A stretch of DNA of 24,075 nt from contig CAZSKP010000040.1 in NCBI GenBank assembly GCA_964607485.1, positions 16,380 to 40,454 of the forward strand. The letters are read 5' to 3'. Of this stretch, positions 3,849 to 20,101 are shown piece after piece. The notes beneath the pieces were generated by a model that did no database searches, had not been told where the DNA came from, and saw only the letters and a list, made by a program, of their open reading frames with translations. The first letter of the stretch is position 1, and every line of letters begins with the position of its first letter. The position numbers were made by a program, and so were the translations under genes. Origin of the DNA: an uncultured bacterium. Lineage in GTDB: Bacteria; Abyssobacteria; SURF-5.

Positions 3849-4501
3849 TGTCCAATTTCGCAGTCCATGATGAACTTCATGACCGTATGGTCTTTGTAAT
3901 CACGTCGTTCTATGGAACGCATCTCCGGAGCGATAAATCGCTTCGAGAAGACCTTATCCCTCTCGATGTTGCGAATGAGCTGTCCGACCAGTTCCACGCC
4001 TTTTTCGCGTTGCGGCGAAAGAGCGTACCCGCTCAGGCGCAGCGCGGGGAAGGACTGGACCACCGTCTTCTTGATTGTCGGGGGCTGGCCCGCGGTGCGG
4101 TTGGGGTTGGGAACTTCGACGGTAACGGGACGCCTGCGAGTGCTCAATCCCACCTGTTCGAGCCAGATCTCATCGGGCACGAGACCGGCGCACACGTACA
4201 GCTCGTGCGACCAGACGGTGCGGCCGTCCGTTATCTGAACGACGGCCTGCTCCTTCTGTGAGAGCAACTGTTTGTCCTGCTCGAGCAGCTTGACCTGATT
4301 GACAACGTCCTCGAGGCTGGCAAGTTCGGTCTCGAGCCCTGCGAGGTCTCGGTTGCTCTTGATGAGTTCCGCATAAGTCGCGGCCAGGCTGCTGCCGAAA
4401 TACAGGAAGAGAACGGCGGCGAGCCCGACTACGGCTACGTACGGAATGAAATTCCTCTTCTTAGGAACTAATTCTCTGGGGAGCAGATTAATGTTAATCA
4501 T
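3845..4501 (-). CDS. pilN: Type IV pilus assembly protein PilN
   Basis: N-terminal ININLLP PilM-binding motif, TM helix, coiled coil, VPDEIWL and LRLSGYA motifs; ATGA overlap with pilM. Confidence 0.9.
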   Translation of the reverse strand: MININLLPRELVPKKRNFIPYVAVVGLAAVLFLYFGSSLAATYAELIKSNRDLAGLETELASLEDVVNQVKLLEQDKQLLSQKEQAVVQITDGRTVWSHELYVCAGLVPDEIWLEQVGLSTRRRPVTVEVPNPNRTAGQPPTIKKTVVQSFPALRLSGYALSPQREKGVELVGQLIRNIERDKVFSKRFIAPEMRSIERRDYKDHTVMKFIMDCEIGQ

Positions 4502-5682
4502 AGCTCTTGAATCCCCCTGGCCGCCAGGCCGACTGCTACGTTGAACTGAGCCCGGTTTTCTATCAGATCCTTGACATCGGAAGAACCTTCCTCGACGATC
4601 AGCGACTGCACCGGATTGACGATCTCCACCGGCACGCCCGTCGCATCGGCGAGGGACTGGTCGAGGCCCGGAAACATCGCGGTTCCCCCGCTGAGCACGA
4701 GTCGGTCCACGTTCTTCTCATAGAGCTGTTTTTCGTAATAGTCGATCGACCGCCTTATCTCGCCTATGAGCCGGTTGAGCGCAGGCCGGGTCGCGTTCAC
4801 GATGCGGCTCGCGTCGTCCGTCTTCATCTTCGACATCGGCTCGGTCGTCTCCTCGCCGCCGTTGTCCCCCTGGCCTTCAAGGGAGAAGTCGGGCTGTTCG
4901 GACACGGGAGCGATTTCAAGGTTTTCGAGCATGCTGTCAGCGGTCTTGCCGTACGGACTGCGGGCATAGTCGACCTTCATCTTCTCCGCTTCGGGGAAGT
5001 CGGCCTTCAGGAGCTTCTGAATGGCCGAGGTCAGGTCTCTGCCTCCGCGCGATATGTCGCGGGTGAAGTTCGATATTCCGTCGCGGCAGAAGTGGATATT
5101 CGTAGAGGAGGCGCCGATGTTGACGAGCGCGACCGTTTCATCCGGCCTGAATCCACCATTTACCTCGAATGCGTCGGCTATGGCGAGGGTGGTGATCCCC
5201 AGTATATTGGCCGTGAGGCCGACGCCTCGCAAAAGGTCGATTGTCTGATTGATCATCTCGTTCTTGGCCGCCACCAGCAATATCTTCATGATGGTCTCGC
5301 CGCGTTCGGTGATCTCTTCGAGCATGACCGAATCCATCGACACCTCGGTCAGGTCGTAAGGGAGATTCTGGTCGGCCTCCAGCTCGATGGAGCTCTTCAG
5401 TTCCTCGGGGGGCATCTTGGGGAAACGAAGGTATCTAATGAAGGTGTCCTGTCCCGGAAGGGCGGTGACGACCACGGACTTCTTTACCGCGAACGTCGAT
5501 GCCACCGTTCTCAGCGCGCGAACAGTTTCCTCGACTTGCCTGTCCTTATCGGTTTGCGAGTCAAGGTTCAAGAGGACGGCTTTGTCCACCTTTGCGCTGC
5601 TCCCAAAGTTGGAAAGCTGAACAGCCTTGACTGAATGAGTACCCACGTCAACGCCTATCGTTGTCTTCGGTTTTGCAAGCAT
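4498..5682 (-). CDS. pilM: Type IV pilus assembly protein PilM (actin-like fold)
   Basis: IGVDVGTHSVKAV, ALVNIGASSTN, TRDISRGGRDLT, EIRRSIDYY, LVLSGGTA, VAVGLAARG; RBS GAGGGAG upstream. Confidence 0.93.
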   Translation of the reverse strand: MLAKPKTTIGVDVGTHSVKAVQLSNFGSSAKVDKAVLLNLDSQTDKDRQVEETVRALRTVASTFAVKKSVVVTALPGQDTFIRYLRFPKMPPEELKSSIELEADQNLPYDLTEVSMDSVMLEEITERGETIMKILLVAAKNEMINQTIDLLRGVGLTANILGITTLAIADAFEVNGGFRPDETVALVNIGASSTNIHFCRDGISNFTRDISRGGRDLTSAIQKLLKADFPEAEKMKVDYARSPYGKTADSMLENLEIAPVSEQPDFSLEGQGDNGGEETTEPMSKMKTDDASRIVNATRPALNRLIGEIRRSIDYYEKQLYEKNVDRLVLSGGTAMFPGLDQSLADATGVPVEIVNPVQSLIVEEGSSDVKDLIENRAQFNVAVGLAARGIQEL

Positions 5683-5753
5683 TGTCTGTCTCCCTCTATC
5701 AATGCCGACACATTTTGCGGCGAGTGACCGTTTGTGATCGACGGTTTCGGTTG

Positions 5754-5770
5754 AGCAAGAACGGTGCCAA
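5754..5770 (-). promoter_or_regulatory. Sigma-54 (-24/-12) promoter of pilMNOPQ
   Basis: Minus strand reads TTGGCAC-CGTTC-TTGCT, matching TGGCAC-N5-TTGCW, ~70 nt upstream of the pilM ATG. Confidence 0.85.
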
Positions 5771-5786
5771 AATTCTTTGGAGAACG

Positions 5787-5799
5787 TAAGCCCTTGTAG
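5787..5799 (-). promoter_or_regulatory. Possible IHF binding site upstream of the sigma-54 promoter
   Basis: Minus strand CTACAAGGGCTTA partly matches WATCAANNNNTTR, with an AT-rich flank, at the position expected for IHF at sigma-54 promoters. Confidence 0.35.
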
Positions 5800-6403
5800 A
5801 ATATGAAATTAGATGGCTTCTCCCGGGTAGAACATTTTTTTGCCGGATTACAAACTTGTACAGCCGCCGCCGAGCGCAGTAGGAAAATACTTTCGGCACT
5901 TCTCCCCACAAAGTCCGTTTCTGCACCGTTCGTTCAGGAGCCCGCCGGCAGCGGCACCGCGCCCACCGCGCCGATACCGCGTCCATCTCCCGCTTGAGCA
6001 TAAACGGCTGTAAAGTCATGGGTTGTGAAAGCATCATTCTGTCACCCGCGCGCCCTGCCGGCCCCGCGCGCGGCCTTGTCTGCGCTACACGCCGCGCTCC
6101 GGAAGGGTGCAATTTTCGTCGCCGCTACAATAAACGTAATGGGGAATGTACAATTTTCTGCCATTCCCGTAGCCCGGCCCATTCGACAATACCGGAGAAG
6201 GACTCCTGCCGGAACTGTATTTTGCATGGCGGGCGCGTCGCCATTGAAGCGACAATTAACAAAAAGTTCCTTGACCAGCCCCAGCCCGGCGCGCAAGACT
6301 GAGTATGAGCTGCGCTCACTAACCAGAGGAGGCGACACACCCGCGTGCAGGATGTGTGCCACCGCGTCTTCCTTGATTTGAAACGATGGCGAAAGGAGAC
6401 AGC

Positions 6404-6898
6404 GTGTATATACGACGGTCGGAGAAACGACGCATATTCAGATTGTTCGCCGCAGGAAAAACGCCCGAGGAGGTGGCCGAGGCGCTCGACGGCTCAAGTG
6501 GCCCTGCCGCCGGCGTTCGCATCGACGCCTCGACAGCCGAGAGGCTCTTCCAGCAATATCTCGCCCTCCCCATCGGTGAGAAACTGCGCCTCACGCTCAT
6601 GGCCGAGTGCGTGTCGAACCGGCTGCACCGGCTGATGGACGACATCTCCGACCTCACGCGCGTCGACGCGCTCCTGACCGAGGCGGATGAGAAGGCGCTC
6701 GTTTCGCTGCTCGATATCAAGCGCAAGATAAAAGAACGGATGGCGAAGGAACATGCGCCGGACTCCGAAGCCCCGCCGGAGCCTGCCGACGAAGAGGTGG
6801 AGAATGAGATCGACCGGTACTATGAGAAGATTTTCGACAGCCCGCCGAATACGGAACAGGTGCGCCCAAGACATCCTCTCGATGGCGCGCCTTCTTGA
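6404..6898 (+). CDS. HTH-containing protein, putative terminase small subunit
   Basis: N-terminal HTH-like EKRRIFRLFAAGKTPEEVAEAL, helical middle, acidic tail; directly upstream of and overlapping terL. GTG 6404 has RBS AAAGGAG; the track's ATG 6386 has none. Confidence 0.6.
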   Translation: MYIRRSEKRRIFRLFAAGKTPEEVAEALDGSSGPAAGVRIDASTAERLFQQYLALPIGEKLRLTLMAECVSNRLHRLMDDISDLTRVDALLTEADEKALVSLLDIKRKIKERMAKEHAPDSEAPPEPADEEVENEIDRYYEKIFDSPPNTEQVRPRHPLDGAPS

Positions 6899-8183
6899 TT
6901 GCGACGTGGCGCCTGCGCACAGGCGCATGGCCGAAGCCATCGCACCGCTCGCGCCGACCGTGGCGGGGGCGCCGACCCTGGTGGAGTCACCGACGCTTCC
7001 GCGCTCGCTCGTCCTCGCGCCGCGCGGGTTCGGCAAATCGACGCTGCTCACGGTCGTCCGCTGCGTCTTCGAGATCGTCCGCAATCCCGACGTGCGCATC
7101 CTTCTCGCAAGCAACACGCAGGCGCAGGCCGAGGCGTTCGTGCGCGAGGTGCGCGGCCACCTCGAGCGGAACGGCGTGTTCCGCAGAATCTTCGGCGACC
7201 TCGTCGGACCGAAGTGGACCGACCGCGAGCTCATCGTCGGCGCGAGAAAGCGGATCGCGAAGGAGCCGACCATCTATGCGACCGGCGTCGGCGGCTCGGT
7301 CATATCGCGCCATTTCGACCTCATCATCTGCGACGACATCGTCGACGAGGAAAACTCCAGGACCGAACTGCAGCGCGAGAAGCTGAGGATATGGTTCTTC
7401 AAGACGCTGCTCCCCTGCCTCGAGCCCGACGGCGAGCTATGCGTCGTCGGCACGCGCTACCACTACCGCGACCTGTATGCGCATCTTATCGAGACGGGCT
7501 TCGTGCCGTCGGTCACCATCATTCGCGCGATCGACGCCGGGGGCGAAAGCCCGTGGCCGGAGAAATTCCCCGTCGAGCGGCTCGAACGCATCCGGCGCGA
7601 GGCGGGCACCGTCATATTCAACGCGCAGTACCAGAACGACACCGAGGCGATGAAAGGGGCCGTGTTCAAGGAAGAGTGGCTGCGGTTCTACGACGAGCCT
7701 CCGGCGCCGCTCAGGATTTTCCAGGGCGTCGACCTCGCCGTCGCGCAGCATGCGGGCTCGGATTTCTTCGCCATCGTGACGATAGGCGCCGACGTGTGGG
7801 GGAACATCTACGTGCTCGACTGCCACCAGGCGCGGCTGAGCTTCAGGCGGCAGACGGCGGCCATCGCGGAACGATTCCGGCGGTTCGACCCCGTCAAGGT
7901 TGCGATAGAATCGAACGCGTACCAGGCGGCGCAGGCCGACATCCTGAGGGAGCTCGGGCTGGCGCGCGTGGCGAAGGTGTACACGACGCGCGACAAGCTC
8001 TCGCGCGCGTGGAAGCTGTCGGCGCTGTTCGAGGACGGCCGCGTCTGGCTCGGTCGCACCATGCACGAACTCGTCGAGCAGCTTCTCTCCTTTCCCGAGT
8101 CCGAGCACGACGACCTGTTCGACGCGCTCGACCTCGCCGTCTCCATCTCCGCCTCCCACGGCCCCCGCATGCGCTTCTGCTGA
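6804..8183 (+). CDS. terL: Phage terminase large subunit (ATPase plus RNase H-like nuclease)
   Basis: Walker A LAPRGFGKST, LLASNTQAQAE, Walker B LIICDD, coupling motif VGTRYH, nuclease GVDLA, DFFAIV, IESNAYQ, DKLSRA, HDDLFDA. Start uncertain: ATG 6804 (RBS GAGGTGGAG), 6822 or 6882. Confidence 0.9.
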   Translation: MRSTGTMRRFSTARRIRNRCAQDILSMARLLDCDVAPAHRRMAEAIAPLAPTVAGAPTLVESPTLPRSLVLAPRGFGKSTLLTVVRCVFEIVRNPDVRILLASNTQAQAEAFVREVRGHLERNGVFRRIFGDLVGPKWTDRELIVGARKRIAKEPTIYATGVGGSVISRHFDLIICDDIVDEENSRTELQREKLRIWFFKTLLPCLEPDGELCVVGTRYHYRDLYAHLIETGFVPSVTIIRAIDAGGESPWPEKFPVERLERIRREAGTVIFNAQYQNDTEAMKGAVFKEEWLRFYDEPPAPLRIFQGVDLAVAQHAGSDFFAIVTIGADVWGNIYVLDCHQARLSFRRQTAAIAERFRRFDPVKVAIESNAYQAAQADILRELGLARVAKVYTTRDKLSRAWKLSALFEDGRVWLGRTMHELVEQLLSFPESEHDDLFDALDLAVSISASHGPRMRFC

Positions 8184-8251
8184 GTGACAGAGCGCCCCCT
8201 AGTCCATCTCCATCTCCCGTGACATATTTGTGTTAAGGAGGTGGAGGGAAG

Positions 8252-8827
8252 ATGGAACTGAAGGGAAAGAAAGTGTTGATTCTGGCGGATGATATGTATG
8301 AGGATATGGAGCTGTGGTATCCGAAGATCAGGCTGACCGAGGCCGGCGCGAAGGTGAAGGTCGCTGGTGTGGAGAAGCGGACGTACCACGGCAAGCACGG
8401 CTATCCCGTCGAGGCGGACGACAAAATCTCGGCCTACGACCCGAAGGATTTCGACTGCGTCGTCGTACCGGGAGGCTACGCGCCCGACAAGCTGCGGCGC
8501 TCGAAGTCGGTGCTCGCCTTTGTGAAGAAGATGCACGACGACGGCAAGGTGGTGGCCTCGATATGCCACGCGGCGTGGGTGCCCATCTCGGCGGGCATCG
8601 TCAAGGGAAAGACGATGACGTGCTTCTCGGCCATCAAGGACGACCTCGTCAATGCGGGCGCCAGGTTTGTGGACCAGTCGGTGGTCGTGGACGGCAACAT
8701 CGTCAGTTCGCGCACGCCCGACGACCTGCCCGATTTCTGCAAGGCCATCATATCGCTCCTCGCCGGCAAGGGCGAATACAGGCCGGTGACAATGGAGGCG
8801 ATGCAGGACGCCGAGGCGTACCTGTGA
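8252..8827 (+). CDS. PfpI/DJ-1 family type 1 glutamine amidotransferase-domain protein (protease/deglycase)
   Basis: YEDMELWYP, VPGGYAPDKLR, nucleophile motif SICHA, VVVDGNIVSSRTPDDLP; strong RBS AAGGAGGT. Confidence 0.92.
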   Translation: MELKGKKVLILADDMYEDMELWYPKIRLTEAGAKVKVAGVEKRTYHGKHGYPVEADDKISAYDPKDFDCVVVPGGYAPDKLRRSKSVLAFVKKMHDDGKVVASICHAAWVPISAGIVKGKTMTCFSAIKDDLVNAGARFVDQSVVVDGNIVSSRTPDDLPDFCKAIISLLAGKGEYRPVTMEAMQDAEAYL

Positions 8828-8852
8828 ATCGGGCCGCAGATTGAAAAGCTCG

Positions 8853-8902
8853 GGGAGGCCAAGGCGCGGGGAGCGTGACCCGACGCCTGCCTCCCTTTTT
8901 TT
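8853..8902 (+). terminator. Rho-independent terminator after the PfpI gene
   Basis: Nested stem GGGAGGC/GCCTCCC, AGGCG/CGCCT, CGGG/CCCG followed by T7. Confidence 0.75.
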
Positions 8903-8995
8903 GACTATGCCCGCGCCTCGGACCCCGTATTTGAGTCTCGATTAACACCAGTCCCGAATTCCCGCCGTTTTTTCTCCCGTTTGCCCATTATGCGC

Positions 8996-9025
8996 TTGCA
9001 TTCGGCAACCGGGTTGTGATAAGAT
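8996..9025 (+). promoter_or_regulatory. Putative sigma-70 promoter with extended -10
   Basis: TTGCAT-18 nt-TAAGAT with TG at 9017-9018, upstream of the TPR/Fe-S genes. Confidence 0.45.
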
Positions 9026-9064
9026 TGCCTGCGTACGGGTTTGTCTCGAAGAAGCTTTTTGATA

Positions 9065-9286
9065 ATGCACTTAGGATACACACAAGAGCCGGAAAAATTG
9101 AACCCCGAGCTCGCCCTCAGACACTATGGGCGGGCTCTAGAATTCTTGCGCGCCGGAGACAAATCCCGAGCGATGGCGGAGCTCAGGCGGGTGCTCGGGT
9201 ACGATCCCGATTTCTCCGAGGCGCGCGCAAAGCTGGAACAATTGGTCGAGAGGCCGGACGAACCCGGCCGCTCTGCCGACGATTGA
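9065..9286 (+). CDS. Small single-TPR protein (73 aa)
   Basis: ALRHYGRALEFLRAGDKSRAMAELRRVLGYDPDFSEARAKL fits the TPR consensus plus a capping helix; ATG 9065 preferred to TTG 9041. Confidence 0.65.
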   Translation: MHLGYTQEPEKLNPELALRHYGRALEFLRAGDKSRAMAELRRVLGYDPDFSEARAKLEQLVERPDEPGRSADD

Positions 9287-9366
9287 AGCGGCTCTTCCTT
9301 TCCGGTTCTCCAGACTGACCGGGAACCCGAAATCAGAGGCCTGAAACCAACGACGGGAGGAACGCG

Positions 9367-10200
9367 ATGTGTCGTTTTTGTGAGGAGTACGGCGACGGCG
9401 GGAAGTGGTATCTCAACCCCGCCAACTACGCGCGCCGGCTGTACAAGACGCGAAAAGAGGGCGACCAGTCGCTGGGCGCCGATGCCGACCCGCAGGCGGC
9501 AGGCATGGGCGGCGCCGTCATCAACGACATAATCAGGGCCCGCGCCGCCGGCAAGCCGGACGAGGAGGCGCGGATCAAGAAGGAGGCGCTCGACAAGGCC
9601 TACCAGATACACTTCGCGCAGGTCGTCACGCTGGAGGAGACCAAGCAGATTTTCGACATCGCCTACCCGATAGCGCGGATGACGTGCGCGTGCAGGCGTG
9701 CGTCGGTGGCGCTGCCCGACGAGCAGAACTTCACCTGCATCGGCATCGGGCCGGGCATGTATAAATGGGAGCGCTGGCCCGAAACATACCGGGGCGGCGT
9801 CGAGTTCATGACGCCCACCGAGGCGAAGCGCTGGGCCGACGTCGCCGACGAAGCGGGGCTCGTGCACACGATAGACGTGTTCGGGCTGCCGTACATCGGC
9901 GGCATGTGCCAGTGCGAGTACCCCGGCTGCGTCGCCATCCGGAACCGGCTCGATTACGACTTCAAATTCCTGCTCAAGGGCGAATACGTCGCCGAGATCG
10001 ACCCCGAGAAATGCATCGGCTGCAAGAAATGCATCCCGCGATGCCATTTCCGCGCCGCGTATTTCAAGGTGTACTCCGAGAAGGCGGCCATCGACATGAT
10101 GCAATGCTTCGGGTGCGGCCTGTGCATGAGCGTGTGCCCGACGAAGGCCATCACGCTCGTCGAGAAGAGTTCTTTCCCCGCGCTGGCGGATAACTGGTAA
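9367..10200 (+). CDS. 4Fe-4S dicluster domain protein with an extra Cys-rich N-terminal region
   Basis: C-terminal CIGCKKCIPRC and CFGCGLCMSVCP; also MCRFC, CACRR, GLVH, CQCEYPGC; RBS GGGAGG. Confidence 0.88.
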   Translation: MCRFCEEYGDGGKWYLNPANYARRLYKTRKEGDQSLGADADPQAAGMGGAVINDIIRARAAGKPDEEARIKKEALDKAYQIHFAQVVTLEETKQIFDIAYPIARMTCACRRASVALPDEQNFTCIGIGPGMYKWERWPETYRGGVEFMTPTEAKRWADVADEAGLVHTIDVFGLPYIGGMCQCEYPGCVAIRNRLDYDFKFLLKGEYVAEIDPEKCIGCKKCIPRCHFRAAYFKVYSEKAAIDMMQCFGCGLCMSVCPTKAITLVEKSSFPALADNW

Positions 10201-10214
10201 ACGGAGGAACGACG

Positions 10215-10532
10215 ATGCTTCCAAAGATAACCGTCGATGTTTCGACATGCCTCGGCCCGCACGAGTGCGGCCAGTGCCTGAGAACCTGCCCCATGACGGT
10301 GTTCATAGCCGGGCCTACGAAGGTGTGGAAGTTCCGCGAGACCGACCGGAGCGACTATCAAGTGTACGCGCGCTACTACGACCAGTGCGTCATGTGCCAG
10401 AAATGCGTGGAGGTCTGCCCGGTCGAGGCCATAACCGTCAAAGTGGATGAAGCTGCGCTCGCCCGGGCGGCGGCCGTCGCGCCGGATGAAGCGCCCGAGC
10501 CTTCGGCCGAATATCCTGCGGCGGCAGACTGA
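10215..10532 (+). CDS. 2x[4Fe-4S] ferredoxin-like protein
   Basis: CLGPHECGQCLRTCP and CVMCQKCVEVCP; RBS GGAGG. Confidence 0.88.
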   Translation: MLPKITVDVSTCLGPHECGQCLRTCPMTVFIAGPTKVWKFRETDRSDYQVYARYYDQCVMCQKCVEVCPVEAITVKVDEAALARAAAVAPDEAPEPSAEYPAAAD

Positions 10533-10570
10533 GGCGATCGCGTTCGATATAGCAACGGAGGGACGAGAGA

Positions 10571-11203
10571 ATGGCGGAGAAAAAAACAAAAAAGAAGAAA
10601 AGCGCCGAGGCTGCGAAGAAAAAGATGGGCCTCAGCGATGAGATAGCTCCCGGCCGTCGGATGAAACTGGAAGAGGGAGCGACATTCGAGTTCGACATGC
10701 CCAAGCAGATGGCCGAGGAGATCTCCTCCTCGTTCAGCTTCCAGGAACTGGCCGACAACCTCCGCGACAAGCCCGAGGACGAGGCCCGAAAGGTGTACGA
10801 CGAGTTCGGCCGCGCCGTCATGAAGAAGGTCATCGAGCTTGCCGACGAAAAATATCGCGACCGAACCACCGAGATGATGGAACTCGTCGCCGGCCAGACC
10901 GGCATCCATTTCCCCCACCGCATACAGCGCTACGTCGAGCTGTCCGTGCTCTCGCTCCGGCCCGAGGACAAGTGGAACGTCACCCGCTCGACCACCAAGG
11001 AGATTCGCTTCCAGGAATACTCCTGCGGCGTGAACAAGGCGCTCGCCGAGGCGGGCATAAACCTCGAGGGGCTGCCCTGCGGCGCAAGCTGCATCGGCGG
11101 ATTCATCGAGGCCGCCAGGGCGGTGTCCGTGAAGATGCGAGTCGCCCACACGGCCAAACTGCCCGAGGCCGGCTACTGCGAATTCTGCTTCTACGCACTC
11201 TGA
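10571..11203 (+). CDS. Hypothetical protein, V4R/ATC-hydrolase-like with C-terminal Cys cluster
   Basis: Host-like codon use; FQEYSCGV...LPCGASC...GYCEFCF Cys spacing resembles V4R/ATC-hydrolase-like folds (family assignment tentative). Confidence 0.6.
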   Translation: MAEKKTKKKKSAEAAKKKMGLSDEIAPGRRMKLEEGATFEFDMPKQMAEEISSSFSFQELADNLRDKPEDEARKVYDEFGRAVMKKVIELADEKYRDRTTEMMELVAGQTGIHFPHRIQRYVELSVLSLRPEDKWNVTRSTTKEIRFQEYSCGVNKALAEAGINLEGLPCGASCIGGFIEAARAVSVKMRVAHTAKLPEAGYCEFCFYAL

Positions 11204-11378: not shown

Positions 11379-12959
11379 ATGAACAGAGTCGGGTTTCTCA
11401 GAGCATTGAAATATATCTTTGACATCCTGGCTGCCGTCTTCGGCGGAGCGGTTGCTTTGAATGTCGGCGCAGAAGTACTGTTTGACTATCCCATCCTTAA
11501 GATGCTCGATCCAATGAGGCTTCACCTGGCAATCGCCGCCATCCTATCGGTCATAATTGCACGCCTGGCCGGATGGCGACAGGAAGCTGTGGAACAACCT
11601 CTCTTGGAGACCACCACGGGTCCCCGTGGCGAGCCGGTGCAAGAGGCCACCCTCAGCGGATTTGAAAAAGAAGTTGATGACGCCGCGACCGAAGCTAAAC
11701 AGGAAGCGACCATATATTTCAAAGCCGGCAAGCAGGATTCCGCCGCACATCGTTACAAAGAAGCCGTTGCCAACTACCAGAGATCCGTGGATTCTCTTCC
11801 AACGATGTCGGGTTATCTGAACTTGGGAATTTCTCTTTTCCATATCTCAGACTACCTTAGGGCTGAGGATGCTTATCGTTCCGGTCTTAAGATCGCGCAA
11901 AAGGAAAATGATGAAGAGTTGAAAGCTGCATTCCTCGGCAACATCGGCCTCGTCTATGCCAATCAGGGGAAGCTGGATGAGGCGCTTCAATCGCACAAAA
12001 CGGCGCTGGAGATCCACAAACAGATTGCGAACGTGATGGGTGGAGCCAATCAACTGGGAAACATCGGCCTCGTCTATCGTGACCAGGGGAAGCTGGATGA
12101 GGCGCTTCAATCGCACAAAGCGGCGCTGGAGATCCACAAACAGATTGGCAACCAGTTGGGTGAGGCTAATCAACTCTGTAACATCGGCAACGTCTATTGT
12201 GAGCAGGGAAGGCTGGATCAGGCACTCATATCGTACAAGGCAGCGCTGGTAATCCACAAACAGATCAGCAACCTCTTAGGAGAGGCTCAGGACCTCGGTA
12301 ACATCGGTAATGTCTGTCGCGACCAAGGAAAGCTAAACGAGGCACTCATATCGTACAAGGCAGCGCTGGAGATCCACAAGCAGATCGGCAACCTCCTCGG
12401 TGAGGCTCAGGACCATGGCAATACCGGCAACGTCTATGCTCAGCAGGGGAAGCTGGATGAGGCCCTCAAATCACATATGAAAGCGCTGGAAATCGACAGA
12501 CAGATTGGCAACCCTCAGGGCGAGGCCAATCAACTCTGCAACATCGGCAACGTCTACTTTCCTCAGGGGAAGCTGGATGAGGCTTTACAGTCACATATGA
12601 AAGCGTTGGAGCTCCACCGACAGATCGGCAACCCGTTGGGTGAGGCAGCAGACCTCGGCAACATGGGCATCGTCTACTTTGATCAGGGTAGGGTAGATGA
12701 GGCGCTGCAATCATTCAAGGCAGCATTGGAGATTCACAAACGGATCGGCCACCCGCAGGGTGAGGCCGCTAACCTCGGCAACATCGGCCTCCTCTATTAT
12801 GATCAGGGAAAGCTGGAAGAGGCGCTTGAACAGTACAAGGCGGCGCTGAAAATCCATAAGGGGATCGGCAACTCGCTGGGCGAGGCGGATGCCCTCGGAA
12901 ACATCGGTCTCGTCTATGCTCGGCAGGGAAAGCAGGCTGAGGCTCTGGAAATGCTCTAG
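11379..12959 (+). CDS. Membrane-anchored TPR protein with 40-aa repeats; homologous frame continues past TAG to 13055
   Basis: Two N-terminal hydrophobic helices, then GNIGxVYxxQGKLDEALxSxKAALEIHKQIGNxxGEA repeats. ATG 11379 has RBS GGGAG; the track start at 11268 would run through the REP. Confidence 0.88.
   Translation: MNRVGFLRALKYIFDILAAVFGGAVALNVGAEVLFDYPILKMLDPMRLHLAIAAILSVIIARLAGWRQEAVEQPLLETTTGPRGEPVQEATLSGFEKEVDDAATEAKQEATIYFKAGKQDSAAHRYKEAVANYQRSVDSLPTMSGYLNLGISLFHISDYLRAEDAYRSGLKIAQKENDEELKAAFLGNIGLVYANQGKLDEALQSHKTALEIHKQIANVMGGANQLGNIGLVYRDQGKLDEALQSHKAALEIHKQIGNQLGEANQLCNIGNVYCEQGRLDQALISYKAALVIHKQISNLLGEAQDLGNIGNVCRDQGKLNEALISYKAALEIHKQIGNLLGEAQDHGNTGNVYAQQGKLDEALKSHMKALEIDRQIGNPQGEANQLCNIGNVYFPQGKLDEALQSHMKALELHRQIGNPLGEAADLGNMGIVYFDQGRVDEALQSFKAALEIHKRIGHPQGEAANLGNIGLLYYDQGKLEEALEQYKAALKIHKGIGNSLGEADALGNIGLVYARQGKQAEALEML
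11935..12959 (+). repeat. Intragenic tandem repeat, 120-bp unit, about 8.5 copies
   Basis: ACATCGG-like starts at 11941, 12061, 12181, 12301, 12421, 12541, 12661, 12781 and 12901, an exact 120-nt period. Confidence 0.92.
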
Positions 12960-13087
12960 CAGGCCGAGTCCATTTATTTGAAGATCGGTGCAAAGACCGA
13001 TGGTCTGAGAATAGTTGAAAAGAAGATTGAGGAACTCTCACAAGGCGCCCCATAGCTAGGAATCCGTTCAAATCCCGCCCATCGCCC

Positions 13088-14464
13088 TCAGGAAAGAGAA
13101 TCTTGTCCGTGCAATATCTGCTCTATGTCGGGACTGTTCAGCGAAGGGTCGAGTGAAATGGCTTCCTGCAAATACTCCCTGCCTTTGGCGGGATCGTTTT
13201 CTTGATAATAATAGATGAGGCCGATGAAGTATTTCGCGGCTGCGTCTTGCGGAGAGATGGTTTCCACGGCCTCGAACAGCGGCAGTGCCTCGGAGTATCT
13301 GCCCAACAGATAATAATTCAACGCCAGGTTCTTGGTTGTGGAGTATCCCTTATTGAGTGAGTAGCCTTTCTCATTGTGGGCGAGCGCCTTTTCGTAATCC
13401 GTCCAGTCCTCGTCGAACTCTCCCAAAAATATCAACCCCAAATTATTGTGTGCGTCGAAATCGTTCGGGTCCGACTTCAGCGCGTTTTCAAAATCGCGGA
13501 CGGCTTCCTCGATGTTGTTCCTCATCAGGTTGATATTCCCCGACATCGAATGATATAACGAATCGCCGGGCTCGCACAGCGACATGACTTTCTGATAGCT
13601 CTCGATTGCTTTCTCGGTGTTTCCCGTACACTCGTGCATGAATCCCAGGTTGCCATAGATAGTCACGGCGTTCCGGCGGTCGCTTGAATCCAGTTCCTCA
13701 ATCGCAAGGTTGAAATGGCGTTCCGCCTCGGTGTAGTTGCCTTCGGACATGAATGCCAGCGCTTTCTCGTTGTAGTCTACTGCATCGGATCGGAGCGCCT
13801 GAGCCGCAAAAGCGAGCCCGAATACAAGTGTGTAGAACAAGACCGGCAGTGCGATAAACATGATTATGCTTCGCACGAGCTTGGTCTCCTGTAATAGCCG
13901 AACACCCCGGTAGCTCAGACTGATTGAATACAGGATCGCAACTACGGAAACGAAAAGCCAGGTCAGGCCCAATGAAGGATTCGTCTCGCCGGTGAAATAC
14001 TTGTCACCATACACAATTGTATCGACGATTTCCGAAATGATTGCGGCTGCATAGACAGGAAGCCCGGTATAGAGGAACAAATTGCGTGATATGTGCCGGT
14101 TTTTTGAGCCGCCGGACAGCCAGACCCGGAAATGGTAGAAGGCGCCACCCACGTAGTAGCCCACGTATCCCGACACAATTCCGCCGATGAGGATGAGGCC
14201 CCAAATCGCGGGCCAATTGCCCAGCGGGTATGTCTGATTTTGGAGCGCCTTGAGCTCGATTCGGTCGATAACGCTCGACATGCCGAGCAACCACACAAAA
14301 ATGAACAAAAACGGAGGCTTCTCAGCCGTCAAATGGTTCTTCAGGACGGCCCTGTAATCAAAGAAGAAATCCCGAATGAACGAGGGAAAAACAGGCTTGG
14401 CCTGGAGTTGGCCCGGCATTAGATTGTCGGTGTCAAACTGTTGCGGCTGCATTTGTGGATTCAT
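13088..14464 (-). CDS. Yip1-like multi-pass membrane domain fused to C-terminal TPRs
   Basis: About five hydrophobic helices with the Yip1-like FHFRVWLSGGS-type loop (GAFYHFRVWLSGGS); C-terminal TPRs (AHNNLGLIFL, AKYFIGLIYY, AISLDPS); RBS GAGG. Confidence 0.78.
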   Translation of the reverse strand: MNPQMQPQQFDTDNLMPGQLQAKPVFPSFIRDFFFDYRAVLKNHLTAEKPPFLFIFVWLLGMSSVIDRIELKALQNQTYPLGNWPAIWGLILIGGIVSGYVGYYVGGAFYHFRVWLSGGSKNRHISRNLFLYTGLPVYAAAIISEIVDTIVYGDKYFTGETNPSLGLTWLFVSVVAILYSISLSYRGVRLLQETKLVRSIIMFIALPVLFYTLVFGLAFAAQALRSDAVDYNEKALAFMSEGNYTEAERHFNLAIEELDSSDRRNAVTIYGNLGFMHECTGNTEKAIESYQKVMSLCEPGDSLYHSMSGNINLMRNNIEEAVRDFENALKSDPNDFDAHNNLGLIFLGEFDEDWTDYEKALAHNEKGYSLNKGYSTTKNLALNYYLLGRYSEALPLFEAVETISPQDAAAKYFIGLIYYYQENDPAKGREYLQEAISLDPSLNSPDIEQILHGQDSLS

Positions 14465-16638: not shown

Positions 16639-17553
16639 TTGAGGAAATTCACATCAGCGCTGAAAATCGGCGTCTCTCTCCTCATTTTCCTTTTCCTTTT
16701 CCGCAAGGCAAACCTCTCGCAAAGCGTCCAATACCTGGGCGACCTCCGGTATTCCTTCCTCCTGCTTTCCATCGTGCTGATAGTGCTGGGCCAGTTCGTA
16801 CGCTCTCACAGGCTTGGCATCATGGTCTTCGGCGAGTCGGCGCGGCACGAGCTCTGGCAGATGATGCGTGTTCAGATGGTTTCCTTCCTTCCGGGCGTCG
16901 TCTCGCCCGCCAAGATTGGCGAGCTCACGAAGGTGTACATGCTCCAGTCCGAATCGGATGTGCCGATAGCGCGCGGGCTGGCGTGCTTCGTGGCGGAAAG
17001 GGTGCTGGACGTGCTCCTGCTTGGGCCGGTTGGGCTGGTCGGCCTGTATGTCTTCTTCAAGGCGGGACTGCGTATCCGCCTTCAGCCGCGAGCGGAGCAC
17101 CTGATCATCCTTGTCGCGCTCGCTATCGCCCTGGGGCTGGTGGCGGGTCTTCTGTGGGCGCGCCGCCGGGGAATCTCTCCGGTTGACCTTTGGCGGACCG
17201 TGTCGCCGACGCGGCTTGTCGAGGCCGCCGCGCTGACGGTGATATTCTGGAGCATCGTCTGCCTGGAAGTCTGGTGTTTCTGCAAGGCGGCTCTTTTCAA
17301 CGGGCCCGCCTGGCACGTCGCGCTCGCTGTTCCCCCCGCGCTGCTGTCCGCGATGATTCCGATAACCTTTTCGGGTTTTGGACTGCGCGAGGCCGCCATG
17401 ATAATATTGCTGCAGAGGCCTCCCGTCGGTACGAATTATGAACAGGCCCTCCTGGTCAGCCTGATGTATGACGTAATCGGTCTGGGAGTGCCCGCTCTCA
17501 TGGGAGGTTTCTTCTGGCTGATGGGGAAGAAGGATGGCGGTCAGCAGGCTTGA
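16639..17553 (+). CDS. Lysylphosphatidylglycerol synthase TM-like / UPF0104 flippase-like membrane protein
   Basis: Multi-pass; PAKIGELTKVY, ERVLD, IPITFSGFGLREAA; TTG start with RBS GGAG. Confidence 0.85.
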   Translation: MRKFTSALKIGVSLLIFLFLFRKANLSQSVQYLGDLRYSFLLLSIVLIVLGQFVRSHRLGIMVFGESARHELWQMMRVQMVSFLPGVVSPAKIGELTKVYMLQSESDVPIARGLACFVAERVLDVLLLGPVGLVGLYVFFKAGLRIRLQPRAEHLIILVALAIALGLVAGLLWARRRGISPVDLWRTVSPTRLVEAAALTVIFWSIVCLEVWCFCKAALFNGPAWHVALAVPPALLSAMIPITFSGFGLREAAMIILLQRPPVGTNYEQALLVSLMYDVIGLGVPALMGGFFWLMGKKDGGQQA

Positions 17554-20101
17554 GATAAGAAACGGCGAGTTCCTGCTCGACGACGCTCTCGTCGGGCATC
17601 TGGCGACGAACCCGCCCGAGGGCGTCACAGCGAGCACGGAGACCGTCACGGAAGAAGGCGTCGTTTCTCTCAGGCTTCGTTGGACGATTGAAAGCAGCCC
17701 CGACCTGCTGCTTCCGCTCGAACTACTCAGGCTTCGGTTGGACGAATTCTACCCGAAAGCCGCGTTCATAGCGGGAAGGAGGTATGAGCTCTCCCATGCC
17801 GAGCGCACGGCGGGCGAGAAGCTGGGGTTTCCCTACAACACGTACTACAAATTTCGCATAAAGGCGCGCCTTCCGTACGACGCCGCGTTGAATTCGAAAA
17901 TGCCGGTCGCCTGCTGGGAAGAGAAACACAGGGCCTTCGCCGTCGCATTTCCGAAAACCGTGATGCTTCCCCAGGAAGACTGGCCGGTGTTTGTAAAGGC
18001 GACCGGAGCGGAGGCTGTCGTGGATTTTTCCGCGGCGCTGTTGAGCGAGTTTCAGGTGCAGCGGAAACCGTTCGGATGGTTCAGCACGCGCGTGCACCGC
18101 ACGGAACACGCCTTGAGGCTGTCCGAAGGCCAGTCGTTCGAGGCGACCTTCCTCATCGTCGCCGCCAACGCGTGGGTCGAATGCGTCCGCGCGCTCGCAA
18201 GACATCTGCACGCGGCCCGGCAGGATGCCGGTGAGGTCCCGGCCGAATCCATGGCGAATATGCTCAAGGGCGCCATCCGCTTTTACGACAGGGTCTGGGA
18301 CGGACACAACCGGACGCATGTGCATCTGCCGATAAAGAACGTTCCCCGATTCGAATCGGTCGAATTCAAGCATTCGCACATAACCGACGACCTCGCCAAG
18401 CTGGTCCTCTATCGCAGGCTTGCCCGGATGGGATGCGCCAAGCTGTCCGGGCGCGAGCGCGAGCTCCTGTCGAGACTCGCCGGCGGCTCGTACTGCCGCG
18501 AACGGGACGGAAGCGGCGTGTGGCATACGACCACCTTTTTCAACGGAAACGGCCTCGAGGCGTTCACGCATCACGGCGTCGGTTTCGTCGGATTCCCCGG
18601 CGGCATGGCGACCGTCGTGAGAAGACTTTTTGAATACTGTGCCCTCGATTGCAATGACGCACTCGAAAACATGGCGCGGTCGGGGGCGGACTGGCTGCTG
18701 AGAACGCAGGCCGAGGACGGCTCGTGGCCGGCCTCGATGGGAGAAACGAAGGGCGGAATTCGCACCGGATGCGTCGCAAGCACAGCCGAGGCGGCCCGAG
18801 CGCTCGCAGCGGCGTATCTTCGAACGGAAAACAAGGAATACCATGCGGCCGCCGACGCGGGCATGCGCTTCGTAAACCGGGAAGAAAGCTTCTTCGAGTG
18901 CATGCGGTATCTGCGCGATGTCGAACCCGACGAGGCCGACGGCATCAGCGCGGAAGCATGCATCCACGCAAACCTCGACCTCCATGACCTCGGGCGCGAC
19001 GCCCGATTCCTCGAGCAGGCCGAGAAGTGGGGCTGCTATGCACTCCAGTGGATTCGGCCCCTGTCAGCCGAGCGCCGCGCGGAGCCGTCGTTCGACGGAC
19101 TGTCGCGGTCGATCACTCCCCGCATCGACGTGTGGGGCGGCCTGCTCATTGCGCGGGCATTCCTGATGCTGTCGCGGACGACCGGCGAACAAGCCTGGCG
19201 CGTCCATGCATGGCGGCTGTTTGAAAACATCGCAAGCCTCCAGGAGCGCGACGGCGGCCTGTGCGAGACGTGGTTCCTCGACTTTCCATCGGGTCTCGAG
19301 AGCATTCACATCGAGCCCACGTTTACCACCGACGCGTTCGTCGAGTTCATCCTCGACGCCTGCCGCGACGATGGGGAAAACGCCCTCGAAAGCGCGCTTG
19401 CTCCGCGGAGCCGTCCGCCGCTCGAAACGACGGGGACGGTCAAGGGGCTGGTCGAGATTTCCGAGGCGCGGCCGGAGTTCGTCATCGACGGGGGCTTGCG
19501 ACTCGCCCTCGCCTTCGACGGCGCGTACGATTCGCTCAGCAGAGCCGTCCAAGCCGTCTACACGATGCTTCGCGAGATTCGACCCGGCCGTCCCGTGTTG
19601 AAATTAGCGCCGATTGCGAAAATCCTGCTTAACCGGCACCGCCTGAGTGCGCCCTTGTCAAGGATCGGCAGAACCGACTTCGTCGAAGTGATGAGCCATG
19701 CGGTCGAGGAGTCCGAGGACGGTCGTCGAACGCATCGATACCGAACGCCGTTCCACGACATAGCGCTCTCTGTCGTTTCAGAGGGCGCCGCTCCCGGCGG
19801 CCTGACCGCCGCCGACATAGAACTCGGGGTAAGGACGCTCGTCGGCGACGTGCGCGTGAGGCAGGTCAGAATCGACCTGCTGGGCAACTACGACATACGG
19901 TCGGTCCGGGGGGAGGACGAGTTTGTCGTCTCATCCGCCGGAAACGAGTACTCCTTTGAGATAACCGACGGCTCGATTGACGCCATTATCCGCGACGGCG
20001 ACAGGCTGGCCCTCGATGTCAGCCTGAGCGCGAACTGGAACTTCTTCGGCGAATACAGCCTTGGCCTGCGCGTCGTGCGCCGCCCCAAGGAACAGCATTG
20101 A
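17534..20101 (+). CDS. Uncharacterised 855-aa protein with a central alpha/alpha-toroid domain (QW-like repeats)
   Basis: Long ORF with RBS AAGAAGGA overlapping the upstream gene; ADWLLRTQAEDGSW and IASLQERDGGL motifs; helical repeats such as YLRTENKEYHAAA, DARFLEQAEKWG, SRTTGEQAWRVHA; beta-rich termini. Confidence 0.7.
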   Translation: MAVSRLEIRNGEFLLDDALVGHLATNPPEGVTASTETVTEEGVVSLRLRWTIESSPDLLLPLELLRLRLDEFYPKAAFIAGRRYELSHAERTAGEKLGFPYNTYYKFRIKARLPYDAALNSKMPVACWEEKHRAFAVAFPKTVMLPQEDWPVFVKATGAEAVVDFSAALLSEFQVQRKPFGWFSTRVHRTEHALRLSEGQSFEATFLIVAANAWVECVRALARHLHAARQDAGEVPAESMANMLKGAIRFYDRVWDGHNRTHVHLPIKNVPRFESVEFKHSHITDDLAKLVLYRRLARMGCAKLSGRERELLSRLAGGSYCRERDGSGVWHTTTFFNGNGLEAFTHHGVGFVGFPGGMATVVRRLFEYCALDCNDALENMARSGADWLLRTQAEDGSWPASMGETKGGIRTGCVASTAEAARALAAAYLRTENKEYHAAADAGMRFVNREESFFECMRYLRDVEPDEADGISAEACIHANLDLHDLGRDARFLEQAEKWGCYALQWIRPLSAERRAEPSFDGLSRSITPRIDVWGGLLIARAFLMLSRTTGEQAWRVHAWRLFENIASLQERDGGLCETWFLDFPSGLESIHIEPTFTTDAFVEFILDACRDDGENALESALAPRSRPPLETTGTVKGLVEISEARPEFVIDGGLRLALAFDGAYDSLSRAVQAVYTMLREIRPGRPVLKLAPIAKILLNRHRLSAPLSRIGRTDFVEVMSHAVEESEDGRRTHRYRTPFHDIALSVVSEGAAPGGLTAADIELGVRTLVGDVRVRQVRIDLLGNYDIRSVRGEDEFVVSSAGNEYSFEITDGSIDAIIRDGDRLALDVSLSANWNFFGEYSLGLRVVRRPKEQH

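Follow-up and report, generated by a model that had tools for sequence, protein, structure and literature searches.

A terminase gene pair of predicted phage origin kept at a host locus in Candidatus Abyssubacteria and its relatives

We analyzed a stretch of 24,075 nucleotides from an uncultured bacterium of the GTDB lineage Abyssobacteria, SURF-5 (assembly GCA_964607485.1, contig CAZSKP010000040.1, positions 16,380 to 40,454 of the forward strand; the whole stretch is referred to below as the window), in which a small gene and a gene for a large terminase, terL, stand divergent from the type IV pilus genes pilMNOPQ. This pair, which we call terS-like and terL, is predicted from its sequence to be a phage-derived DNA-packaging enzyme that was fixed and has been kept intact by its host lineage, namely Candidatus Abyssubacteria and relatives within Hydrogenedentota. 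Such a domestication had been considered in the initial annotation of the window, and it is upheld by conserved synteny, by purifying selection, by a TerL clade that is not nested among phage terminases and by gene junctions that are reproducible between assemblies. The pair probably serves a virus-like particle of which the other parts are encoded elsewhere. As to whether it is, more specifically, the packaging module of a dispersed and domesticated particle system of the gene-transfer-agent kind, we consider the chances on the present analysis to be about even.

TerL is, as judged from its family matches and motifs, an intact large terminase, combining a predicted ATPase of the additional-strand, conserved-glutamate (ASCE) type with a predicted RNase H-like nuclease. 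In its 433-aa reading (6882-8183), residues 10-429 align with phrog_38, 'terminase large subunit', at an E value of 2.2e-97 (1.4e-97 for the longer reading). TerL also matches Pfam Terminase_6C above the cut-off (residues 282-420, E 2.5e-11) and TIGR01630 (43.6 bits, with a cut-off of 41.65), and its sequence profile matches the terminase chains 4bij (T7 gp19) and 8dgc in the PDB, with E values of about 1e-8. The cut-off of the T7-type equivalog NF033889 was missed (115.7 vs 150 bits), the match covering model positions 16-272 of 500 and hence the N-terminal half only. The initial annotation had described a large terminase with Walker A, Walker B, coupling and nuclease motifs, and every motif that it quoted is present in the translation (PRGFGKS, LIICDD, GTR(YH), QGVDLA, SDFF and EHDDLFDALD), and these motifs vary little or not at all across 23 aligned homologues. 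APRGFGKS, LIICDD(IVDEE) and GTRYH, which we take to be the Walker A, Walker B and coupling motifs, respectively, are the same in the TerL clade and in its phage-context relatives, and the acidic nuclease residues D284, E343 and D410/D411/D414, all located inside the Terminase_6C match, are invariant in the 23-homologue alignment. The AlphaFold2 model of TerL, computed from a 23-row alignment, was poor, with a mean predicted local distance difference test (pLDDT) of 54.8.

The two ends of TerL deserve separate consideration. At the C-terminus, residues P428, R429, R431 and F432 of a short tail are invariant or nearly so in 23 clade members. This tail, P-R-M/I-R-F-F, is kept in the host-type clade only, while 17 aligned phage-context relatives have unrelated and variable tails, and its conservation suggests that it binds a conserved partner, such as a portal. 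At the N-terminus, the start most likely lies at ATG 6822, since a peptide in the TerL frame upstream of ATG 6882 is conserved in all seven loci in which this region is readable. Within the resulting overlap of the two genes, conservation is found in the TerL frame, and the terS-like homologues vary at their C-terminal ends. We infer from the overlap that translation of the terS-like gene and terL is coupled. With regard to length variation in TerL, a tandem 18-nt duplication inside terL (6951-6986) lies in an N-terminal stretch of about 20 residues that is absent from 21 of the 22 aligned homologues, and the clade members P0024, P0035, P0036, P0038 and P0028 carry inserts of 20-45 residues, too short for inteins, at the junction of ATPase and nuclease or after the coupling motif.

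For the small gene, the initial annotation stated that a helix-turn-helix (HTH) gene precedes the terminase. The gene exists, and its GTG start at 6404, with GGAG located 5 nt before it and homologues that start there too, is to be preferred; the HTH assignment is the part that is weak, with HTH_23 (E 0.004) falling below the cut-off. The protein matches no family in Pfam, PHROGs or NCBIfam. Its relatives, 43 at E ≤ 0.01 besides the record of the window itself, are without a family name, and the organism names found among them are those of the TerL clade. An AlphaFold2 model (pLDDT 75) is all-helical, with predicted helices at residues 11-22, 27-36, 48-60, 63-70, 73-99, 102-123 and 136-150, the order being an HTH at the N-terminus, then a long helical hairpin and, at the C-terminus, a helix that follows an acidic linker or tail. 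When this model was compared with known folds, the top Foldseek matches in the PDB were the small terminases of the Thermus phages G20c/P74-26, which are non-significant (E 0.087, template-modelling (TM) score 0.26-0.33), and several of the BFVD matches are annotated as small terminase, with none reaching significance. The nearest ESM-Atlas clusters are all viral, one of them being a Terminase_5 cluster at 0.92. The alignment profile of the terS-like family gave a weak match of 45 residues to 8vd6 among PDB sequences (E 2e-5), with no stretch that passes alone, and hhalign comparisons of this profile with the genes upstream of terL in the distantly related loci L031, L022, L033 and L015 gave probabilities of 0.3 or lower. 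The complex predicted for TerL and the terS-like protein scored 0.00, which should be read as weighing neither for nor against binding. The name terS-like should thus be taken as one suggested by weak leads, namely position, overlap, predicted architecture and the fold and Atlas matches, with no TerS family profile being matched.

Relatives of TerL were collected by a search of 5.8 billion protein clusters and, separately, by a scan of GTDB species representatives. Not counting the record of the window itself, the cluster search yielded 38 clusters with identities of 65-81%, below which the values drop to 57% or less. The named members of this clade are 'Candidatus Hydrogenedentota bacterium' and 'Candidatus Abyssubacteria', and one locus, L005, is recorded together with its terS-like protein under 'Candidatus Poribacteria'. 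The scan of representatives yielded 39 loci, of which 11, from 8 metagenome-assembled genomes (MAGs), are of the close, host-locus type, TerL being 65-77% identical to that of the window in the other MAG species representatives that share the host locus. The full arrangement, with pilQPONM divergent from terS-terL and the latter followed by pfpI, fer4 and orf10571, is found in L001 and L009. In L003 (Abyssobacteria SURF_17), pilQPONM and terS-terL are followed by rpoN, without pfpI; L004 presents terL-pfpI-fer4-orf and L005 presents terS-terL-pfpI, and in L002 the first 86 nt of pfpI are kept after terL and a sigma-54-type pilM box is found at the contig edge. Synteny in related genomes, for which the initial annotation had asked, is therefore seen on the pilM side in L001, L003 and L009 and on the pfpI side in L001, L009, L004 and L005, with remnants in L002. 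Identities to L001, L003 and L009 are 72-77% for TerL, 72-78% for pilM and 64-76% for pilN, and those to the syntenic loci are 77-84% for pfpI and 88-90% for fer4. The flanks of the host-type loci consist of ordinary cellular genes, with no structural phage gene within 10 kb of any of these loci. Misassembly at the flanks of the pair was also considered and is excluded, because both junctions recur in independent assemblies.

That no prophage surrounds the pair had likewise been claimed, and on this point Pfam, PHROG, tRNA, Rfam and repeat scans of the window all agree. No portal, capsid, tail or integrase gene was found among the 29 open reading frames (ORFs) of the window compared with Pfam or the 29 ORF readings compared with PHROGs, the sole other 'head and packaging' match to PHROGs in the window being a generic secretin match of pilQ to M13 pIV. 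The tRNA scan of the 24-kb window gave none, no Rfam family was matched in it, and the search for att-like flanking direct repeats gave short chance matches only. The tRNA and Rfam scans of the host-type loci also gave nothing, and the features by which a prophage is recognized (integrase, att repeats, a tRNA target, adjacent structural or lysis genes) are absent from the window and from the flanks of the related loci. In its composition terL is assimilated to the host: its G+C content at third codon positions (GC3) is 0.89, the maximum of the window (fer4, 0.88; pfpI, 0.86), and its codon preferences correlate with those of pooled host genes at r = 0.95, in line with the earlier remark that the genes look as GC3-rich as their host neighbours.

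The terL gene is under purifying selection at the rates of host genes. The ratio of nonsynonymous to synonymous substitution rates (dN/dS), calculated by the Nei-Gojobori method (NG86) for those pairs only in which dS is defined, is 0.032-0.216 for terL (24 of 28 pairs), well below 1. It is 0.11-0.42 for the terS-like gene (10 of 15 pairs), 0.046-0.142 for pilM (6 pairs), 0.048-0.109 for pfpI and 0.031-0.062 for fer4, and all of these figures are rough, as dS is saturated and exceeds 0.9 in all but one of the defined pairs; if anything, such saturation would inflate the ratios. For the same pairs, terL and pilM differ in dN by a factor of no more than about 1.4.

In a tree of 61 TerL rows (quick IQ-TREE run, LG+C20), the 23 host-type rows form a single clade, with an SH-like approximate likelihood ratio test (SH-aLRT) support of 99 and a stem of 0.39. 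When referring to this tree, it should be noted that the rows L010 and L013 are wrong-frame ORFs with very long branches that are to be ignored; these rows were also left out of the motif alignment of phage relatives. TerL relatives at 41-49% identity are mostly found in phage modules, with hallmark genes (portal, head decoration, major head, integrase, primase or phrog_6299 small terminase) at 12 of the 17 scanned loci and none at the other 5, and among deposited phage TerLs the closest reaches 32% identity at most. Nesting of TerL among prophages, named earlier as an outcome that would speak against domestication, is thus not what the tree presents, as TerL forms a clade of its own and its distant relatives lie in phage clusters. 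Among the phage-type loci, L026 has a complete series of TerL, a 582-aa protein, portal, protease, major capsid, adaptor and tail, in which the 582-aa protein (11987-13735), located between TerL and portal, has weak PHROG matches only. Another terminase without a phage around it was seen in L015, from a Latescibacteria MAG, where HEPN_LA2681, a 217-aa ORF and a 431-aa TerL (8104-11101), the latter 56% identical over its N-terminal half, lie beside IS21 and host genes (enolase, Usp), possibly in a defence-like setting.

The portal of L026, used as a search query, retrieved 112 proteins, consisting of four L026-type clusters, then 16 clusters at 55-61% identity, and then, after a gap, matches at 49% or less. 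Members of 2 of the 16 clusters are named as portals, one of 'Candidatus Abyssobacteria bacterium SURF_17' (RJP69468.1, on a contig of 28,964 bp) and one of 'Candidatus Abyssubacteria bacterium' (GAB4332630.1, on a contig of 141,212 bp). In SURF_17, the terS-like and terL genes are carried by a contig of 71,949 bp, apart from the portal contig, and neither the window nor any of the flanks fetched around host-type terL genes contains a portal homologue. Pairwise identities of these HK97-type portals are 76-100% (median 82, 136 pairs); within the clade, those of TerL are 58-90% (median 71, 210 pairs) and those of the terS-like protein 37-77%. An ESM-Atlas search with the portal returned the same portal family again. 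L026-type elements are among the nearest phage-context relatives of both the clade TerL (49%) and the lineage portal (56%), a pattern that would be compatible with a common origin of the two.

In the mechanism that we propose, the small helical HTH protein would bind DNA and recruit TerL, which would cut the DNA and pump it into a procapsid through a portal. The genes of this procapsid would not be adjacent to the pair, and a conserved HK97-type portal would be provided from elsewhere in at least one genome of the lineage, with this Abyssubacteria portal as the obvious candidate for the docking partner of TerL. We think that TerL may still dock on a portal, because the full protein, including the clade-invariant C-terminal tail, has been kept. 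According to PMC9662315, gene-transfer agents have endogenised genes, often at multiple loci, that are mostly inherited vertically and co-diversify with the host, and they form caudovirus-like particles that package random host DNA, are unable to hold their own genes and deliver DNA. With respect to endogenisation at multiple loci, terS-terL occupies a host locus, and in SURF_17 a separate contig carries the portal. With respect to vertical inheritance, synteny, host-like rates and monophyly argue for it, but distances are star-like and second copies occur. The dispersed gene-transfer agent that the initial annotation had suggested thus finds indirect support in a conserved portal on a separate contig in SURF_17, set against a terS-terL contig of 3.5 Mb from which no such portal was returned.

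Some observations weigh against a domesticated packaging system and need to be considered together with the saturation of dS mentioned above. The order of distances differs between genes, in that terL is most distant in L009 and the pil genes are most distant in L001, and the distances among four taxa are star-like; as the four-point sums hardly differ, they neither demonstrate co-diversification nor speak against it. Moreover, a second terS-terL copy is present at another locus in 2 of the 8 carrier MAGs, which points to past mobility, and the MAGs concerned may be mixtures of related strains. One such copy, L006, shares its MAG with L004; here terS-terL is followed by a gene of the glycoside hydrolase 106 (GH106) type. 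The other, in the same MAG as L005, is spread over L024 and L023, contigs that overlap by 114 identical bases, with DUF5906 primase-type gene fragments upstream and ftsH and folP downstream, and its terL is broken by an insert of about 200 nt, which comes after about residue 195 and is similar to repeats that precede terS in L006. A 96-nt repeat upstream of terS is 97% identical between L005 (49-144) and L006 (701-796), two loci in different MAGs of which the coding sequences are about 25% different. Small repeats common to loci are also found in L024 (2751-2885) with L023 (1-184) and in L006 (259-432), and one of the small repeats is what interrupts the second terL copy. All of them resemble miniature mobile elements, and neither the tRNA nor the Rfam scan gave a match for them. 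As for the portal, none of the 112 matches comes from a contig of 3,505,456 bp on which terL (P0010) and the terS-like gene (P0124) both occur, so that at least one carrier seems to be without the conserved portal on its terL contig. No capsid, protease or tail gene was found for the lineage, the matches of the major-capsid search being 39-57% identical and none of the ten that were looked up being assignable to it, and the Abyssubacteria portal may sit in an ordinary prophage with a terminase of its own.

Given these points, other explanations for the pair should be weighed. The pair might work without any resident capsid, either by loading onto the procapsids of infecting phages, for interference, defence or the packaging of host DNA, or as a capsid-free nuclease or translocase. 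We regard this as unlikely, even with terS-terL being the only constantly linked unit (the adjacency to pil and that to pfpI both break in some loci), with no conserved-clade portal from the 3.5 Mb carrier contig and with host-type loci that are free of structural genes over 10 kb. The conserved portal is, after all, present in the lineage, and specific docking between TerL and portal, together with an invariant tail, would fit poorly with dependence on changing phages. Furthermore, a comparison of five proteins with the 5027 defence models of PADLOC-DB 2.0 gave no family at E ≤ 0.01, and no precedent was found in full-text literature searches. The terminase-only form of this explanation, in which a host motor acting on incoming phage procapsids would cause transfer of host DNA or starve the phage of heads, is to our mind equally doubtful. 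We are still less inclined to see here a small, selfish, satellite-like mobile element, made of primase, terS and terL, that became old at the window locus, which would be a distinctly improbable history. It could explain second copies at unrelated loci in two MAGs, one of them with primase fragments upstream, as well as the repeat common to L005 and L006 and the KAP NTPase gene downstream in L002. No integrase or primase gene, tRNA or att-like repeat was found at the window locus, however; the locus is stable across 5-6 assemblies, of which the host genes are 70-90% identical, and is fully host-like in codon usage, and the second copy in L024/L023 is broken.

The initial annotation also raised DNA processing tied to the neighbouring pilMNOPQ machine. 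Such a role, which might lie in DNA uptake, is favoured by the divergent adjacency to pilMNOPQ in the window, L001, L003 and L009, but must be considered very improbable. Adjacency to the pilus genes is absent in L024 and probably in L006, pfpI likewise does not adjoin the second copies in L006 and L024+L023, L003 is without pfpI, and pilM has a sigma-54-type promoter of its own; we know of no competence system that uses a terminase. The same annotation left room for a decayed prophage remnant, a functionless remainder that would account for the isolation of the terminase pair from other phage genes. With reading frames intact, catalytic motifs invariant or nearly so across about 40 clusters, dN/dS at 0.03-0.22 and synteny conserved, we find this hardly credible.

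The pair can be compared with several known systems. It resembles the TerS/TerL holoenzymes of tailed phages in the domain order and catalytic motifs of TerL and in the small upstream gene, which overlaps terL and has a predicted HTH and helical hairpin, and it differs from phage holoenzymes (T7 gp19, 4bij; TerS of G20c/P74-26) in having no adjacent portal or head genes and in its host-like codon usage and rate. Phage satellites, such as the phage-inducible chromosomal islands (PICI), their capsid-forming kind (cf-PICI) and P4-like elements, carry packaging genes. The likeness to these lies in chromosomal packaging genes without a full phage and in the DUF5906 primase fragment by one second copy; unlike them, the window locus is without integrase, replication gene or att site and is syntenic across species. 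The main cluster of the gene-transfer agent RcGTA has terS, terL and portal side by side, whereas terL and portal are on different contigs in SURF_17, and the TerL described here belongs to the phrog_38 type, its match to a T7-like ATPase being weak. The RcGTA-type agents of Alphaproteobacteria have phage-derived packaging genes, vertical inheritance, purifying selection and several loci (PMC9662315). In being a predicted phage-derived packaging gene pair at a host locus under purifying selection, the present pair is like them.

The closest resemblance in arrangement is to Brachyspira, in which a single, highly conserved putative terL lies outside the delineated gene-transfer-agent cluster (BhGTA/VSH-1) and has an inferred packaging role (PMC9662315). 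A host-conserved terL apart from structural genes is already known from that genus. Both terL genes stand apart from structural genes, are conserved in the host lineage and form their own branch apart from phage TerLs. Within-clade TerL identity is 58-90% here and is reported as 81-100% in Brachyspira (PMC9662315). The present case differs from Brachyspira in its host, Abyssubacteria/Hydrogenedentota, and in its co-conserved terS-like partner, and it is known from genes alone. Full-text literature searches found nothing on orphan, domesticated or exapted terminases of this kind or on terminase-like defence, and no paper linking Abyssubacteria or Hydrogenedentes with a terminase; a term search confined to the main text of the paper describing Abyssubacteria found no phage, terminase, portal or pilus in it.

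The coordinates of the features are summarized in Table 1.

Table 1. Features of the window considered in the analysis, in order of position.
Feature	Position	Strand	Basis or remark
pilQ	138-2684	minus	Pfam
pilP, pilO, pilN	between pilQ and pilM	minus	Pfam
pilM	4498-5682	minus	Pfam
pilM-terS spacer	about 700 nt, between the divergent genes		
Box of 18 nt, conserved, about 130 nt 5' of terS	6258-6275	plus	Candidate regulatory site
terS-like gene	6404-6898 from GTG (164 aa), or 6386-6898 from ATG (170 aa)	plus	
terL, most likely start	6822-8183 from ATG (453 aa)	plus	phrog_38, Terminase_6C
terL, alternative starts	6882 (433 aa); 6927 (418 aa)		The latter is a database prediction
Overlap of terS-like 3' end and terL 5' end	6822-6898	plus	77 nt, different frames
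Clade-specific TerL C-terminal tail codons	8166-8180	plus	P-R-M-R-F, then C (window) or F (most relatives)
pfpI	8252-8827	plus	
fer4	9367-10200	plus	277-aa 4Fe-4S-domain protein
Small ferredoxin (105 aa), then 210-aa ORF	3' of fer4	plus	210-aa ORF of no family
TPR, glycosyltransferase, lysyl-PG-synthase-like (PG, phosphatidylglycerol) and B12-radical-SAM (SAM, S-adenosylmethionine) genes	further 3'		

In the spacer between pilM and the terS-like gene, boxes at 6147-6157 and 6258-6275 are conserved in L001, L003 and L009, and the rest of the spacer is not. The second of these boxes is unique in the window, and a 12-nt core of it is found upstream of terS in L001, L003 and L009 only, these being the pilM-adjacent loci with enough upstream sequence to show it; the box could belong to the regulation of pilM instead. 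About 75 nt upstream of pilM, at 5755-5769 on the minus strand, lies TGGCAC-N5-TTGC, which we take to be the sigma-54 consensus. It is unique in the window, has no match in 100 shuffles and is exact in L001 (5459-5473), L003 (8932-8946) and L002 (8-22), with a one-base variant in L009; more conserved boxes are found upstream of it, at about 5846-5895. As this conserved box precedes pilM, the pilMNOPQ operon looks sigma-54 dependent. The gene that adjoins terL in L003 is rpoN. In a scan of 5600-8900, sigma-70-like sites were absent and terminator-like sites were about as frequent as in shuffled sequence. The ORFs of the spacer (5994-6302, 6025-6381 and, on the minus strand, 5699-6112) were rejected as spurious, having no family and not being conserved as proteins in L001, L003 and L009.

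Downstream of the pair, the block at 9367-11203, which holds fer4, the ferredoxin and the 210-aa ORF, is 76-90% identical in L001, L004 and L009 and is the most conserved part of the neighbourhood. The 277-aa fer4 protein has a C-terminal 4Fe-4S dicluster domain, and its N-terminal 200 residues are without assignment. Further downstream, an 855-aa ORF (17534-20101) without a match in Pfam, PHROGs or NCBIfam is located between the lysyl-PG-synthase-like membrane gene and a family-2 glycosyltransferase gene, and 3' of it lies the B12-radical-SAM gene, with a sub-threshold match to HpnJ.

If our reading of the pair is true, the uncultured deep-subsurface lineage Abyssubacteria would possess a domesticated phage packaging system. 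This would be a candidate for a new family of gene-transfer agents, in a phylum for which our literature searches found no reported one, and a second case, after Brachyspira, of a terminase kept apart from the structural genes. It would have consequences for our view of the regulation of such systems and for the design of genome scans, as scans that require terL to lie beside capsid genes would miss both the Brachyspira and the Abyssubacteria systems. The pair would also be a clean one for biochemistry, consisting of a 164-aa putative small subunit of no known family and a compact TerL.

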